Below, in pieces: positions 15,365 through 42,419 of a stretch of 56,557 nucleotides of DNA; position 1 is the stretch's first letter, and each line of letters begins with the position of its first letter. The DNA lies in assembly GCA_964473825.1 (NCBI GenBank), contig CAYYQL010000017.1, positions 1 to 56,557 of the forward strand, read 5' to 3'. The DNA is from an uncultured archaeon. GTDB taxonomy: Archaea > Asgardarchaeota > Thorarchaeia > Thorarchaeales > Thorarchaeaceae. The translations under genes were made by a program, and so were the position numbers. Below the pieces are notes generated by a model. The model was given only the letters and a program-made list of their open reading frames with translations. It had not been told where the DNA came from and searched no databases.

Positions 15365-15460
15365 CTTTGTTTGTGGTTCAGCCCAGCATCTGGGCCACAT
15401 CCCGTGCGGACGGATCCGCCAACACAAAGGAATAGGAGGCCTCATAACGAGGCCACCCTA
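15365..15460 (-). promoter_or_regulatory. Structured eL15 mRNA leader (r-leader candidate)
   Basis: Outer stem CTTTGTGTTG/CAAACAAAG enclosing GCGGA-TCCG-TCCGC and GTG-GCCCAG-ATG-CTGGGC-TGAAC-CAC. Confidence 0.65.
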
Positions 15461-32558: not shown

Positions 32559-34010
32559 TCAGAAGAAATAGCTTCCGTAATCTTCATTGGAAGAAGAGCA
32601 AGCACTCCTAGCAGAGGGTTGATGGCCCTCAGGCCCAATTCCTTGACAGATCTGTTCAGCTTCTTCAACGTGATATTCTTGAACTAAATCATGATGAGAC
32701 TGAACAGCAAGGTCACCGGAAACTCGAATGACCCCACCAAGTTCCCTTAACCTGAGTGTGAGCGCATCACGTTTTCTGTCGAATTGCCAAGCCATCTGTT
32801 CTGCAACATCGAGAATTCTCTGAACTGCATCTCCTGTGAAGTGGGGAATACGCTTATCCTCATCTACCGACTGGGCAATGAATCGCACCAAGTCATCTAA
32901 GGCGTCAGGACTCCTCTCTATCCACGAATTCAGCAAGATCTCATAGCCATATCCGCGGATTCTCGATCTTAGAGGAGGAAGAATGGATGGGAGGTCTTCC
33001 GGATTGCAGGATGCAAAGAGGATGAAATCGCTGGGAATGGCATCAATACGGACAGCAGCCCCTGAGCTCTGAGGATTATGACCACTGATGGGATATTTCT
33101 TGTCCTGTAGCGCGGTGAGCAAATGCTTCTGATAGCCACCTAGTGAGGCCAGTTCATCAATGTACAGGATACCTTCGTGAGCTTCATGGATTGCTCCGGG
33201 GATCACTCGGCGATGGGGAGGAGTGCCCAAGGACTCGGCACCACCGTAGGGATCATGTCTGACATCACCAAGAATCTCAACCACGCTCGAACCACTCACC
33301 TGAACAAAGCGGCTTGACTCTAGAGATACGAGAACGCTCTGATTTTCTTCTACTGGTTCTATGGTTCGTGGGGAGTCCGAGGCCATATCTTGTAGACTCA
33401 CCAGAATAGAGTCATGGCCATCCCTCTGATATGTGACTTCTTCTGTTCTCGTGCCTCTGCGCTCAACAACTGTGACAGAGTCGGTTGCTCGTTCTTGAAC
33501 TACATCAAAGACGCTGAAGAGGCCGTGATAAGACTCTTCGGTCATCCAGCTAGACCGTTTGGGATTTCCACAGTCCATGCACAAATCGTGGTCAGGAGAA
33601 GAAAATGCACGACAGCGGGGACATCTATAGCCCATCTTGACTGCAACCTCAAAAGGAAGTGCATCGGGCCGGATATAGTGCCTTTTGGAAATCTCACGAG
33701 AAACGGGTTCTGCTACGGGTGAGAATCGACGGGCCTCGGCTTGAGGTCTCTCCGGTTTGGCAGGATTGGCAATAATCCATATAGACTCCTTCGGTGGGGG
33801 AAGCAGGGTAGATGCAGCCCTCGCAAGCATAGACTTTCCAATACCAGGAACACCACAGAAGAGAACATGACGCCTCTGAACTACTGCTGACTTTACAAGG
33901 CGAATAGCAGCGTCTTGGCCGATTATTCTTTCAAATAAATCACAGGGGACTGCTACTTCAGATGTGTTCTCTATACGAGTCAGCAGCTCACTCACTGTAT
34001 CTGGCCTCAT
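32559..34010 (-). CDS. LonB-type AAA+ ATPase lacking the protease domain, with Zn ribbon
   Basis: IIGQD, GVPGIGKS, LGDVRHDPYGG..LGTP.H.RV.PGAIHEAH.GILYIDE, LRSRIRGYGYE, LTLRLRELGG; CPRC/CMDC; ends soon after the AAA lid. Confidence 0.88.
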   Translation of the reverse strand: MRPDTVSELLTRIENTSEVAVPCDLFERIIGQDAAIRLVKSAVVQRRHVLFCGVPGIGKSMLARAASTLLPPPKESIWIIANPAKPERPQAEARRFSPVAEPVSREISKRHYIRPDALPFEVAVKMGYRCPRCRAFSSPDHDLCMDCGNPKRSSWMTEESYHGLFSVFDVVQERATDSVTVVERRGTRTEEVTYQRDGHDSILVSLQDMASDSPRTIEPVEENQSVLVSLESSRFVQVSGSSVVEILGDVRHDPYGGAESLGTPPHRRVIPGAIHEAHEGILYIDELASLGGYQKHLLTALQDKKYPISGHNPQSSGAAVRIDAIPSDFILFASCNPEDLPSILPPLRSRIRGYGYEILLNSWIERSPDALDDLVRFIAQSVDEDKRIPHFTGDAVQRILDVAEQMAWQFDRKRDALTLRLRELGGVIRVSGDLAVQSHHDLVQEYHVEEAEQICQGIGPEGHQPSARSACSSSNEDYGSYFF

Positions 34011-34101
34011 CTACCTTCTTCGTATGAGAAAGGGCCATGTGCTCGGTGATAATTGTGAGTAATACGCTGATTGCGTAACTGTCGTGTAAAAACAGCTGAT
34101 A

Positions 34102-34127
34102 GAATGGCATCCAGGTAGATGCCATTC
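34102..34127. terminator. Perfect 10-bp inverted repeat downstream of osmC
   Basis: GAATGGCATC-CAGGTA-GATGCCATTC. Confidence 0.5.
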
Positions 34128-34139
34128 GATAGGGGTGTT

Positions 34140-34586
34140 CTACTCGTATACTATCTCAAGATCGGTGATCATCTTAATACAAGAACCAACCAGACAGTTG
34201 CCGATGGGGCAGTTTTCCTTAGCAGTTTCAAAGAGTTTGTGAATCCGCTTCTCATTTGACCCCTCAGGAACCACAATTTTGGTCTTGATTGTGATTGCCG
34301 TGAAGTAGCTCCGAGCAGTATCTTCTTCTGTTTCGTAGTCGCCAACAATCTCCGACTCAAGATCCAGGAGCTCGATGTGGCCCTTTTCAAGAGCGATTTC
34401 AAAGACCAGATTGACACATCCGCCAATCGAGGCCAAGAAGAGTCCATGAGGACTGGTCGCACCTGGATGATTTTTGACCATTGGCGGGGGACAGACAGCC
34501 ACCATATTCGATTCACTCAATGAAACTCCATGAATCTTTGGAGTCGCTGACTTGCGAAGTTGCGCTGTGAAAGTTGAATTGACCAT
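34140..34586 (-). CDS. OsmC/Ohr family protein
   Basis: SPHGLFLASIGGC...AKENCPI two-Cys signature. Confidence 0.85.
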   Translation of the reverse strand: MVNSTFTAQLRKSATPKIHGVSLSESNMVAVCPPPMVKNHPGATSPHGLFLASIGGCVNLVFEIALEKGHIELLDLESEIVGDYETEEDTARSYFTAITIKTKIVVPEGSNEKRIHKLFETAKENCPIGNCLVGSCIKMITDLEIVYE

Positions 34587-34741
34587 TATGTTTCATCTCT
34601 TCAAAGGAATAGCAATTGTAGTTACAATTGACTCGTCATTTCGCAAATCGGGCAATCAAATAAACGATTTGGATTGTGCCATGCAACCTGTTTCCTCTTT
34701 ACTACACCTTCTACAGAGAGAGCCAAGACAGCGATATTCGG

Positions 34742-36001
34742 CTACTCTATTTCATCGAATGTGATTATCTTCAAACTCGAAGGAGGTCTGTCGATATCAG
34801 CAACAGCAGCTGCAATGAGGAGTCTTGTACCTAGACCGCTTACAGCGTCAATGAGTCTTTGAGTGACGACTCCGTCAAGAACTATAGCATCAACAGCATC
34901 ATGGCTCTTGAGAGCTTTTGTCAGTTCGGACACGCCGCATTCAGCAACAACCTCCAGTGTATCATTGAAGAGAGCTGCTCTGAAAGACTCCTTGAGTTCA
35001 TGTATTTTCTCAAGATATGGCTCTTGGACCATTGGTTTTTCGGGGGGTTTTTTCTCAGACTTCACGGGCTTCCGTTTCTCTGATGGTTTTTCACGCCTAG
35101 ATGACCGTGGCTTGGTACGCGGTTTGCGACCTTCCTTCTTTTTCTTGTCAGAAGATGTCTTTCTTTGCACCAACGTCAGAGCTTGATCAGCAGGTATCTT
35201 GGACTGGAGAGCCTTTGTTATCTCACGACGGGTGAGGTCCTCTACTTCTTTTCCTTCGGGCGCCCGAGCAATGAAATCAATCCTTGCCACCTGCATCAGC
35301 TCTCGTAGAATCAGGTCTCCGCCACGATCACCATCTAAGAAGGCGATGACTGTGTTGTCATTCTTCTTCGTGAGGTCTGCAATGCTCTTTGGTACATGGG
35401 TTCCCTCGACGGCTATGGTATTTGTTACACCATTCTTCATGAGATTAATAATATCCGCTCTTCCCTCTACAAGAATCATCTCGTGGGTCGCGTCAAAATC
35501 CGGACCCGTTGGTAGCTTGTCCGGGCCGTATTTGGCGACTGTTCTCTTCTTTGCCTTGGTAACAGCCTGCGTAATCTCATCTGACCCAGGGGAGATGTCT
35601 TCTTCCCATCCTTTGAGGATGCTAATCGCACGACTGACGACTCTGCGCCTCTTAGCACCGCGGATGTCCTCAAGCTTGTCAAGGGTGACACTGGCTTTAC
35701 AAGGTCCAACCCTGTCCACCGTTTCGATTGAAGCAGCAAGTATGGCTGTAGCGGTCTTGTCAAGCGATACGGGGATGACAATCTCGCCCCTGCTACTTCC
35801 ACCCTCCGAACGAACAACTATCTGTATTCTGCCAATCCTGCCTGTTCTCTGAAGCTCTCTGAGATCGAGGTCTTCGCCAAGTAGTCCCTCTGTCTGACCG
35901 AATAGAGCCCCAACAACATCAGGCTTGTCAACAACCCCGTCAATATCGATTCTGGCCCTGACGACATATTTCGCAGTGCTCTGATCGAAATCAGTTCCTA
36001 T
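34742..36001 (-). CDS. dnaG: Archaeal DnaG (exosome-associated TOPRIM protein), extended to an ATA start (36001 or 36007)
   Basis: Conserved N-terminus TAKYVVRA...GVVDKPDVVGALFGQTEGLLG.DLDLRELQ.TGRIGRI upstream of the ORF-track start; VEGRAD, FLDGDRGG; in-frame TAA just upstream. Confidence 0.93.
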   Translation of the reverse strand: MGTDFDQSTAKYVVRARIDIDGVVDKPDVVGALFGQTEGLLGEDLDLRELQRTGRIGRIQIVVRSEGGSSRGEIVIPVSLDKTATAILAASIETVDRVGPCKASVTLDKLEDIRGAKRRRVVSRAISILKGWEEDISPGSDEITQAVTKAKKRTVAKYGPDKLPTGPDFDATHEMILVEGRADIINLMKNGVTNTIAVEGTHVPKSIADLTKKNDNTVIAFLDGDRGGDLILRELMQVARIDFIARAPEGKEVEDLTRREITKALQSKIPADQALTLVQRKTSSDKKKKEGRKPRTKPRSSRREKPSEKRKPVKSEKKPPEKPMVQEPYLEKIHELKESFRAALFNDTLEVVAECGVSELTKALKSHDAVDAIVLDGVVTQRLIDAVSGLGTRLLIAAAVADIDRPPSSLKIITFDEIE

Positions 36002-36009
36002 TTCTATGC

Positions 36010-36320
36010 ACGTCTCCTTTTAATTACTGCCACGTGCCCTGCCTATGGGGGCGATGTTTCTGCCCTGCCGAATCTTACGGACTAAGATGTCCCCACCACT
36101 CCGGAGTAATGTGCCGCTGGTGTTGGCAACTTTTCATATGCCCGTTCTTATTCAAGAGATAATGATATGATAATCCTATGAGTGATAATAATCCCATGAT
36201 CTGCTCGGCGGCCGCTCATCGACCCAGTTGCGGATCGCACAGTTCAGGCCCCGTGACAATGTAATGATTATGATTTGGTGAGTCTTGAAATCCGACCGAA
36301 TGAATACGGTAGGACTTCAC
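36010..36320 (-). promoter_or_regulatory. Long structured 5' leader (or separate ncRNA) upstream of dnaG
   Basis: Several hairpins with G-U pairs on the minus strand; no credible ORF. Confidence 0.45.
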
Positions 36321-36376
36321 AGTTCCACGAAACTAGTTTCAGTATTTGAAGCTGTCGTTAACAACGAAGTGGAATT

Positions 36377-36740
36377 GGGCTAGGGTCTGCTTGGCGCCAA
36401 TTGGCAAGCCTAATATTGGTACAATGACATAGATAGTGATGTTCAGCAGATAGCCCATCTTCGAGGGCGCACTGAGTTGCTACGATGATGTGTTGCGCAA
36501 ATGGTGGGCAACAGCTTCGAACACAACCCGTCATGACAATGTCTGCGAACCACAACGGACTCAGTTGACTCAGATGATGTCTGCGGATGATTCTTGGGTC
36601 ACCCTGGTTTCGCACAATGACGGACAAGTCGATGCCATAAGAGCCCAACATGAGACAGCTTGGTGGAGGCGGAAGATCTTCCGGAGCGATGAAGCCGAGA
36701 GTTAGTGTGTAGGGACACAGGCATCGGCACTGTTGTTTTT
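36377..36740 (+). ncRNA. SRP(7S)-RNA-like structured ncRNA with atypical S domain
   Basis: Nested helices 36470-79/36656-65, 36528-34/36617-23, 36544-52/36605-14, 36566-73/36594-601; TATA-like box about 27 nt upstream; 3' hairpin plus T-tract; 5' GGGCTAGG and helix-5 motifs resemble archaeal SRP RNA as recalled. Confidence 0.6.
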
Positions 36741-36751
36741 CCTACAGAGTG

Positions 36752-37423
36752 CTATAACTGTACATCCTCTCCGGGCCTTAGAACTGTCACAGTTGTCGAA
36801 GGATTTCTTCTTGATACTAAGGATTTGAACTTCTCGGGATCGGCCTTAATTGCTGGAAAAGTATCGTAGTGCATAGGAATCACATGTTTGGGATTTAGAA
36901 GACTGACAGCGAGTGCTGCCTGCTCCTCGTCCATTACGTAGTACGAACCAATGGGTAGAAGAGCTACATCTGGTGAGTAGAGTTCGCCAATGAGGCTCAT
37001 GCTCGAGAAAACACCTGTGTCGCCTGCATGATAGAATGAACCATCTCGAAAAGATACAACGAATCCGGTTGGTGCACCAGTACCACAGGAATGGAATGCT
37101 TGAACAAGTGTAATTTTGATGTCCTCTATTTCAACACTTCCGCCAATGTTCAGCGTATGAACATTCTGCAGACCGTTCTCCTCTTTCGCCTTGATGCCAA
37201 GTTCATTGATTGCAACGAAGTAGGCACCGGTCTTCTTACAGATTCTCAAAGCCTCAGCAAATCCATGGTCGCCATGATCATGCGTGACAAGCACAACATC
37301 TGCATCTTCTATGTCATCGGTGGTGATGGGGGAGGTTGGACCATCAAGCCAAGGGTCAACGAAGACCGTCTTCCCTTCTGATTCTATTTTGAAAGAAGAA
37401 TGACCAAGATATGTGAATTTCAT
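36752..37423 (-). CDS. Metallo-beta-lactamase fold hydrolase (UPF0173)
   Basis: YLGHS, THDHGDH, YHAGDT, IPMHYDTF. Confidence 0.93.
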   Translation of the reverse strand: MKFTYLGHSSFKIESEGKTVFVDPWLDGPTSPITTDDIEDADVVLVTHDHGDHGFAEALRICKKTGAYFVAINELGIKAKEENGLQNVHTLNIGGSVEIEDIKITLVQAFHSCGTGAPTGFVVSFRDGSFYHAGDTGVFSSMSLIGELYSPDVALLPIGSYYVMDEEQAALAVSLLNPKHVIPMHYDTFPAIKADPEKFKSLVSRRNPSTTVTVLRPGEDVQL

Positions 37424-37535
37424 AATCAACAATCTCCTTGACTGAGAGAATACTGGCAAAGAACATTTACTTTTCGATAGCGTAAGGTGATCTATACCAA
37501 GAATGTCAAGAGCAACAACTTAAGTCGAAATATGA

Positions 37536-38465
37536 GTGAGTAAAGAATCGAGTCTACCCATGACCGTACGACCACATCCGGATTTGCTACAGGCAGGAAA
37601 GATTGCGTCCAAGGTGATATCTGAGATAGCCAAAGAGGCTAAGCCAGGCGTTAGCGTGCTCAGATTATGCCAGATGGCAGAAAGCAAGACCATCGAGTAT
37701 GGTGCAACAGGTCATGCCTTTCCCTGCAATATATCAACTAATGAAGAGGCGGCCCATTATACAAGCCCTGAAGGAGACCTACGGGTCTTGCCCGATAGGG
37801 GGCTCGTAAAGATTGACCTTGGAACCCATGTGAATGGTCATCTGTCTGACACAGCACTTACGGTAGATATGGACGGTTCTTATTCTGACTTTATCAGCGC
37901 GGTACAGAATGCGTTGATTGCTGCCATCGATTTAGTCAGACCTGGATCTAGATTGGGAACTATCGGAGCAGCTATCGAGACAGCTATAAGAAAAGAAGGC
38001 CTGAATCCTGTATACCAGCTCTCAGGTCATCAGATGAAACCATGGGTATTACATGCTGGAAAGAACATACCAAATGTGAGAACAACGGGATCTGAGAGAG
38101 TGCAGAAGGGAGAGATATACGCGATTGAACCATTTGCGACTGATGGAGTTGGTTCAATAAAGGTAGGAGAAGAGGTCTATATCTTCTCCAATGTTTCGAA
38201 GACGAAACGTAAACTCAATCGTCCGGACAGGCAGCTTTGCAGCACTCTGAGAAAACGATTCAGAAGCCTGCCTTTCGCGTCAAGATGGATCAGGATGAAT
38301 GATGATATACGTGCATCATTCCGAAGGCTGCTTCAGGCAGGAGTGATTCGAGGGTATCCGGTTCTGATTGAGGGGGAAAAGGGGATGGTTGCTCAATGGG
38401 AACACACTGTGTTCGTAGGAGAAGACAGGACCATGGTTACCACAAAGCAGGGAAATAGCCCATAG
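37536..38465 (+). CDS. map: Type II methionine aminopeptidase (paralogue 1)
   Basis: AFPCN, AAHYT, KIDLG.H..G..SDTA, GHQ, LHAG, AIEPF, EHT. Confidence 0.92.
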   Translation: MSKESSLPMTVRPHPDLLQAGKIASKVISEIAKEAKPGVSVLRLCQMAESKTIEYGATGHAFPCNISTNEEAAHYTSPEGDLRVLPDRGLVKIDLGTHVNGHLSDTALTVDMDGSYSDFISAVQNALIAAIDLVRPGSRLGTIGAAIETAIRKEGLNPVYQLSGHQMKPWVLHAGKNIPNVRTTGSERVQKGEIYAIEPFATDGVGSIKVGEEVYIFSNVSKTKRKLNRPDRQLCSTLRKRFRSLPFASRWIRMNDDIRASFRRLLQAGVIRGYPVLIEGEKGMVAQWEHTVFVGEDRTMVTTKQGNSP

Positions 38466-42253: not shown

Positions 42254-42419
42254 TGGTGGGGCGGATGGGATTCGAACCCACGATCGACGAGTTTCGCCAG
42301 GCGACAGCATTCATTGACCCTATTAGTTCTTGGCTCTAAATGAGCCGAGATCTGGAGCCCGTCGCCATACCGTTGCAGACCACGTTGAAACTCAACGCGA
42401 TTGACTAGGCCACCGCCCC
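42254..42419 (-). tRNA. tRNA-Trp(CCA) with two introns (D-loop, 30 nt; 37/38, 59 nt)
   Basis: Removing 42373-42402 and 42293-42351 gives a 77-nt cloverleaf with CCA anticodon and encoded CCA end. Confidence 0.9.

Follow-up and report, generated by a model that had tools for sequence, protein, structure and literature searches.

The dnaG locus and its coding sequence

We analyzed a window of 56,557 nucleotides (contig CAYYQL010000017.1, positions 1 to 56,557, assembly GCA_964473825.1) from an uncultured archaeon of the Thorarchaeaceae. The dnaG gene is located on the reverse strand of this window, and its reading frame is delimited by the following features.

34742..36001, reverse strand: dnaG coding sequence, 419 codons and a stop, read from the near-cognate ATA at 36001-35999; TOPRIM domain at approximately residues 176-257

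36020..36022, reverse strand: in-frame upstream stop TAA, which closes the dnaG frame; in most relatives the stop is a TAG inside UAGGAG

After the TAA (36022-36020), the frame reads AAG GAG ACG TGC ATA GAA ATA GGA ACT GAT TTC, and its first ATG, GTG, or TTG is GTG 35719. ORF finders give a dnaG product of 325 amino acids from this GTG because no canonical codon lies earlier in frame. The initial annotation stated that 94 conserved N-terminal codons precede the GTG, which was confirmed by the invariant columns of the DnaG N-terminal domain common to 572 archaeal relatives and by codon periodicity. No other part of archaeal DnaG is as well conserved as these codons, which encode KYV.RA.I...GVVDKPDVVGA.FGQTEG.. 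and fit the domain motif KY..A..E.DGVV.KPDV.GA.FGQTEGLLG..LDLRELQ..GRIGRI, and substitution among relatives at the first, second, and third codon positions was 0.12, 0.08, and 0.38, respectively, the third position being the most variable. The protein read from 36007 has full-length DnaG orthologues in 41 of 41 relatives. In a Pfam search with the same protein, residues 176-257 matched Toprim_4 (E=4e-9), and Toprim_2 and Toprim also exceeded their curated cut-offs.

The absence of a canonical start codon, as proposed for this gene, was borne out by its relatives: the position of Met1 is occupied by ATA or ATC in 26 of 36 distinct Thorarchaeota loci, which come from related metagenome-assembled genomes (MAGs), so that counts across them are not independent. 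A gene truncated to GTG 35719, a pseudogene, or an ATG lost through an assembly error is almost certainly a wrong reading. GTG 35719 is the start that ORF finders choose, but the codons thereby skipped are the best conserved of DnaG and evolve as codons, and the near-cognate state is found in 26 independent assemblies.

Start codon and Shine-Dalgarno region

The region between the upstream stop and the conserved N-terminus contains three features relevant to initiation.

36009..36019, reverse strand: Shine-Dalgarno (SD) sequence AAGGAG (36019-36014) and conserved GUG (36011-36009), which pair with 16S rRNA ...CACCUCCU

35999..36001, reverse strand: most likely start codon, AUA, homologous to the ATG or TTG start of 10 Thorarchaeota relatives and to archaeal Met1

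36005..36007, reverse strand: alternative AUA, a less likely start, 6 nt after GGAG; its equivalents in relatives are GTA, GTT, and CCA/TCA-type codons

The 16S rRNA end ..CACCUCCU (the 3' end was read from L121) can base-pair with both AGGAG and GUG, leaving a 2-nt bulge, and this duplex, with GUG as its last element, ends 7 nt before AUA 36001. The distance from GGAG to AUA 36001 is 12 nt. Genome-wide, the spacing between GGAG and the start peaks at 8-11 nt (62, 48, 50, and 57 ATG cases); a spacing of 12 nt occurs 26 times and one of 6 nt 13 times. In other archaeal DnaG proteins (M-G-(K/T)..), Met1 is found 32-33 codons ahead of the invariant FGQTEG, and 36001 occupies this position, 33 codons ahead of the motif.

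The codons at the Met1 position of the 36 Thorarchaeota loci are ATA (20), ATC (6), ATG (5), and TTG (5), a non-AUG start of the ATA/ATC type thus being conserved in 26. No in-frame ATG, GTG, or TTG is present from the upstream stop to the KY motif in 19 of the 36 loci; in the remaining seven near-cognate loci, a canonical codon preceded by an SD sequence occurs only in L006. When the DnaG tree is rooted on sequences from other Asgard archaea, ATA or ATC is found on the earliest Thorarchaeota branches; TTG was gained once and ATG three times. Judging from this tree, whose backbone is weakly supported, the near-cognate dnaG start is an old and maintained state in Thorarchaeota. Its depth in the family and the rare, repeated reversion to ATG or TTG argue that weak initiation is selected. 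Near-cognate codons of this kind initiate poorly in haloarchaeal reporter studies.

ATA 36007, ATA 36001, and ACG had originally been named as candidate starts. Alignment with Met1, spacing, and distribution on the DnaG tree all point to 36001, and these comparisons support initiation of dnaG translation at the near-cognate AUA 36001. Initiation at AUA 36007 is quite unlikely. Locus L006 has an ATG there with an SD sequence upstream, and most near-cognate genomes have ATA, ATT, or ATC at that codon; however, L005 has GTA and L046 has GTT at the equivalent position, and the TTG and ATG clades lack the codon, which is of the CCA/TCA type in the former. It is also out of register with the Met1 found in other archaea, its 6-nt spacing is uncommon (13 cases versus 48-62), and just 1 nt separates it from the GUG of the bulged duplex. 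ACG 36013 was ruled out as the start by locus L033, where a TGA stands three codons ahead of Met1. The codon equivalent to ACG 36013 shows no synonymous variation among relatives, so that GAGACGTGY is conserved as RNA and not as codons.

The spacer GGAGANGUG is present in 26 of 26 near-cognate loci and in none of the 10 canonical loci. A stronger SD sequence compensating for the weak start was considered and rejected: the mean duplex energy is -8.7 kcal/mol in near-cognate loci versus -11.3 kcal/mol in canonical relatives, a difference in the opposite direction. Although GGAGANGUG is tied to the near-cognate loci, the SD duplex is no stronger there, which weakens the case for a strict coupling of the start codon to the leader.

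We infer the use of AUA and AUC from the comparison of sequences, and a full-text literature search found no report of AUA or AUC starts in archaea. Near-cognate AUH, ACG, or CUG starts after GGAG/SD motifs showed no genome-wide enrichment.

Near-cognate codons were also observed at other loci. Of 17 dnaG loci from Bathyarchaeia, 10 have ACG at the Met1 position, and this codon follows GGAG by 9-10 nt where the spacing was measured; in five of the 10, no canonical codon is available instead. Close relatives differ in this respect (ACG in L071 and ATG in L083). A second candidate is rpoE1, located in the same window as dnaG, where an ATT follows GGAG at 9 nt and no canonical start occurs for 26 codons.

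Probable structured leader upstream of dnaG

The gap between the gene of an MBL-fold protein (36752-37459) and dnaG is approximately 745 nt, and its length and sequence are conserved family-wide, with approximately 60-80% column identity among relatives. No codon periodicity was detected in the gap, and stops are present in all frames, which excludes a hidden protein gene. There is no conserved upstream ORF in the leader either; a 40-codon ORF at 36075-36197 is lost in relatives. A divergent RNase P or SRP RNA was likewise excluded, as both genes sit elsewhere in the genome. The elements identified in the part of the gap adjoining dnaG are as follows.

36342..36360, reverse strand: promoter-like block TAACGACAGC-TTCAAATA-C, with a BRE-like AACGACA and a TATA-like element (36350-36343) in invariant or near-invariant columns

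36287..36318, reverse strand: hairpin P0, predicted 5'-terminal hairpin, which forms in nearly all relatives

36258..36283, reverse strand: AUCAY-rich tract 1, 26 nt, G-free

36252..36257, reverse strand: 5' strand GUCACG of the long-range helix P1, which encloses a 217-nt domain

36220..36237, reverse strand: hairpin P2 (CGAUCC / GGGUCG), different in sequence in almost every genus

36190..36201, reverse strand: hairpin P3 (GAUC-AUGG-GAUU), with a closing pair that varies across the family

36158..36190, reverse strand: AUCAY-rich tract 2, G-poor, inside the P1 domain

36156..36259, reverse strand: match of covariance model R1, covering the P1 5' strand, P2, P3, and tract 2; sole copy in the genome

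36029..36034, reverse strand: 3' strand CGUGGC of P1, 9 nt upstream of the SD sequence

The consensus of the promoter-like block across the family is TAACGACAKC-TTCAAATA-C and is near-invariant. The arrangement AACGACA-NN-TTCAAATA resembles AACGAAA-NN-TTAAATG upstream of tRNA genes in the same genome. The distance from the TATA-like element to the start codon is 315-367 nt (39 loci), and the base of P0 lies approximately 27-30 nt downstream of the TATA-like element. The predicted transcription start is near 36320. The position of the TATA octamer would equally suit a divergent candidate RNA; therefore, its assignment to dnaG rests on the side of the BRE-like element and on P0, and the octamer may be shared between the two.

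Covariation was detected in P0, P1, P2, and P3, for both score and paired cells (0/500 shuffles), and shifted-partner controls were 20-47% paired. RNAalifold on wide alignments recovered P1 only; the local hairpins were specified by hand and then counted. P1, first found by RNAalifold, switches between AU and GC (14/7) and between CG and UA (15/6), with 0/500 shuffles. P0, which had been noted as a hairpin at 36287-36318, turned out to covary: 13 of its 14 pairs show two-sided changes, and 74% of cells are paired versus 65.5% in shuffles (0/500), with shifted-partner controls at 42% or below. The closing pair of P3 is GC, AU, CG, GU, or UA depending on the genus (five of the six standard types), with one UG. 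P2 and P3 covary (0/500 shuffles), with only 65-77% of cells paired on the alignments used; realignment to the covariance model R1, which represents the P2-P3 region, did not improve these counts.

The ratio of G-U to A-C is 13:0 in P1 and 43:13 in P0, and this excess indicates that the RNA lies on the dnaG strand. AUCAY motifs number 6-13 per 300 nt on the sense strand versus 0-1 on the antisense strand of Thorarchaeota leaders, and the leader of this genome has 6 versus 0.87 expected. With its promoter block, four covarying helices, sense-strand G-U signature, and absence of T runs, the proposal of a structured dnaG leader of approximately 300 nt is supported. A doubled GGCAGGGCA noted upstream is present here and is confined to this genus among the relatives.

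It had also been proposed that AAGGAG lies in the loop of a GCACGT/ACGTGC stem. This complement around the SD sequence exists in the present genome, but it is not conserved: 62% of cells are paired, which equals the shuffle mean, and there is no covariation. The long-range helix P1 accounts for this, since it takes up the 5' arm of the stem, which overlaps the 3' strand of P1; the stem does not track the compensatory changes of P1. No conserved SD-sequestering helix was found in the comparison of dnaG leaders.

Formation of a canonical start at the RNA level, by splicing or editing, or by a frameshift from the out-of-frame GUG 36011, is highly improbable. Such a reading draws on the BHB-like mini-introns that split dnaG in other Asgard families and on the invariance of GUG 36011-36009 across near-cognate genomes. 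However, a splice at P1 would not alter the stretch from the SD sequence to AUA, and P1 has neither 3-nt bulges nor a BHB motif. For a frameshift, the GUG frame hits a TAA two codons on in L003 and L018, and the spacing from GGAG to GUG is just 2 nt.

The split genes themselves were found in four other Asgard families (six genomes), where dnaG is divided at FGQ|TEG. Excision of a hairpin-forming insert of 28-34 nt restores the invariant FGQTEG motif in five of these genomes. The inserts of L114 and L117 are bordered by a 4-bp helix set between identical 3-nt bulges, as in a bulge-helix-bulge intron. No solution came out of the removal scan for the sixth genome, G032 (locus L119), where a 40-nt insert was read by eye. 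A full-text literature search found no report of Asgard mRNA introns.

Distribution and identity of the leader

R1 matched 36 of 36 Thorarchaeota loci and none of seven other Asgard loci, and it matched one site in the present genome. The leader element is therefore single-copy, located only in front of dnaG, and restricted to Thorarchaeota among the Asgard loci searched. No Rfam 15 match to the leader was obtained at E<=1 within 34000-38000 on both strands, a scan at the gathering score gave nothing in the dnaG leader region, and a full-text literature search found no report of a dnaG leader.

An independent ncRNA gene of approximately 290 nt next to dnaG, acting elsewhere while dnaG is read via a short leader or by read-through, is unlikely. 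The promoter-like block could belong to such a gene, and the RNA is retained in ten relatives with normal start codons. However, P1 ends 9 nt before the SD sequence, which leaves no space for a separate dnaG promoter. The domain also contains no conserved TATA, a T5 run that could serve as a terminator is present in 0 of 39 leaders, and the RNA is found once per genome, exclusively before dnaG.

The initial annotation described the leader as riboswitch-like. A multi-helix domain closed by P1 and adjoining the ribosome-binding site would suit a metabolite-sensing riboswitch controlling dnaG; nevertheless, we consider this very unlikely. The element is single-copy, specific to one gene and one family, and unmatched in Rfam even at E<=1, and for these reasons a riboswitch is not favored. 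In the genome and loci searched, it does not recur upstream of other genes or in other lineages, and alternative pairing with the SD sequence is not conserved, the sole candidate for an SD-proximal stem pairing no better than shuffles.

Discussion

In this study, we examined the dnaG gene of a Thorarchaeaceae genome and the conserved region upstream of it. The best explanation, which we consider probable, is that dnaG mRNA is produced from the BRE/TATA promoter with a structured leader of approximately 320 nt, that its translation starts at AUA 36001, and that the leader is cis-regulatory. The gene would be transcribed from BRE/TATA 36360-36343 as one transcript starting near 36320, whose leader would comprise, in order, P0, the G-free AUCAY tract, the 217-nt P1 domain (P2, P3, and AUCAY tract 2), a 9-nt linker, and the SD sequence. 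The 5'-terminal P0 is expected to stabilize the mRNA, and the weak AUA start would hold DnaG synthesis low and dependent on start-codon stringency. Ten relatives keep the leader with ATG or TTG, which suggests that leader and weak start are separable.

The leader would be a gene-specific cis-regulatory RNA that most likely binds protein. As a subunit of the exosome, DnaG binds RNA and prefers A-rich RNA (PMC7667871), and this makes DnaG itself or the DnaG-Csl4 exosome cap a natural and obvious candidate binder. By analogy with the rne, pnp, and ribosomal-protein leaders of bacteria, autoregulation of dnaG by DnaG via its leader is plausible.

A broader view is possible, though doubtful: dnaG may be a hotspot of post-transcriptional control in archaea, with AUA/AUC starts in Thorarchaeota, ACG starts in Bathyarchaeia, a Thorarchaeota leader providing feedback through binding of DnaG or the exosome, and BHB-type mini-introns splitting FGQ|TEG in other Asgard families. 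If this is true, Asgard archaea regulate a core gene of RNA metabolism through start-codon stringency and mRNA splicing, both usually considered eukaryotic modes of regulation. In most Thorarchaeota and many Bathyarchaeia, annotation pipelines will shorten dnaG or assign it a wrong start. The leader represents a new structured RNA, backed by covariation and absent from databases. Because it is located ahead of the gene of an RNA-binding exosome subunit, the proposed feedback loop is directly testable.

Several known systems resemble parts of this arrangement. Bacterial infC, which encodes IF3, has a conserved AUU start codon. Similarly, the AUH start of dnaG is conserved over long evolution behind a good SD sequence, and expression would be tied to start-codon discrimination; in contrast, dnaG operates with the archaeal aIF1/aIF2 system, uses both AUA and AUC, and has a 320-nt leader in addition. 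DnaG is not known to have a role in initiation, and since it is not an initiation factor, the feedback of infC is not applicable to dnaG as such. Initiation at near-cognate codons (CUG, ACG, AUU, and AUA) in eukaryotes is tuned by eIF1 and eIF5, and Asgard archaea have the homologous aIF1/aIF2 machinery. Both cases employ single-mismatch codons for regulated low-level initiation, whereas the start of dnaG is set by an SD sequence and not by scanning.

With respect to the leader, an Rfam search found the eL15-Euryarchaeota leader RF03144 in the same window. Archaeal ribosomal-protein and L7Ae leaders, of which RF03144 is an example, are likewise cis-regulatory, structured, and specific to one gene and lineage. 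They are rRNA-site mimics of 40-100 nt, whereas the dnaG leader, for which no mimicry target was identified, combines AUCAY repeats with at least four helices over approximately 320 nt. The 5' UTR of Escherichia coli rne (approximately 360 nt) and the pnp leader are autoregulatory leaders of RNA-decay enzymes. The dnaG leader is comparably long, structured, gene-specific, and placed before a gene of RNA degradation, and the logic proposed by analogy is that the protein would act on the leader of its own mRNA by binding or cleavage; the dnaG leader differs in having no sequence or structure similarity to these leaders and in the additional weak start codon. The dnaG arrangement can be likened to infC combined with long autoregulatory leaders such as those of rne or pnp, but it belongs to none of those families.

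Candidate near-cognate start codons

In the dnaG genes of Bathyarchaeia, ACG occupies the Met1 position (that of M-G-S-S-Q in locus L103) in 10 of the 17 loci (L058, L071, L092, L093, L097-L100, L108, and L110). The spacing from GGAG to ACG is 9-10 nt in the loci where it was measured, and the ACG of L071 stands against an ATG at the same position in its close relative L083. The Bathyarchaeia ACG looks like a second near-cognate dnaG start, independent of the AUA at 36001 in the Thorarchaeaceae contig. Immediately 5' of the dnaG Shine-Dalgarno sequence, AAUCAY is found in L025-L027, L093, L108, and L110, which cover Odin, one sister family of the Thorarchaeota order, and several Bathyarchaeia, and it may be a short motif common to these lineages.

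The window also contains a candidate for a second near-cognate start, in rpoE1/rpo7:

24765, minus strand: ATT 9 nt past GGAG, where Met1 of Rpo7 is expected (IYSIVTVRDIVRIPP..)

The first in-frame ATG appears 26 codons downstream. Elsewhere in the same genome, ATA or CTG stands 8-12 nt after a Shine-Dalgarno sequence in a few long ORFs that lack a canonical start for 20 codons (contigs C4, minus strand, 144218; C5, minus strand, 24834; C19; C33; and C2). In one example, ITWKYDVAVIGAGG.., the N-terminus resembles that of a dehydrogenase. Such ORFs, which occur at the background rate, may also use near-cognate starts.

Promoter region and other RNA features

36343-36350: conserved TATA-like octamer
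36377-36740, plus strand: predicted divergent H/ACA RNA, with UGAUGA-like K-turn motifs
42257-42419: Rfam tRNA match with introns, 163 nt
15370-15419: Rfam match, here in Asgard DNA, to the ribosomal-protein leader eL15-Euryarchaeota

The single octamer lies approximately 27 nt from the base of P0, the hairpin at the predicted 5' end of the dnaG leader, and also approximately 27 nt from the predicted start of the divergent RNA; it may be a bidirectional promoter common to both. Among Thorarchaeota relatives, the 16S rRNA genes of G021 (L120) and G002 (L122) are broken near the 3' end. The G002 match extends over 2278 nt for 1478 model positions, which points to rRNA introns. The assembly of the present genome does not include the 16S rRNA 3' end.

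Inserts in dnaG of other Asgard families

In six loci of other Asgard families (L114-L119, from genomes G030, G040, G035, G027, G038, and G032), dnaG is split at the invariant motif FGQTEG, between FGQ and TEG. A removal scan restored the motif in five of the six by deleting an insert of 28-34 nt, a length that is not a multiple of 3, and the scan of L119 (G032) gave no solution. The inserts are hairpin-forming, and the differences between those of sister genomes are compensatory. Those of L114 and L117 are bordered by identical 3-nt bulges (AAA/AAA and AAU/AAU) on either side of a 4-bp helix, a predicted fold that has the layout of a bulge-helix-bulge intron, here in an mRNA.
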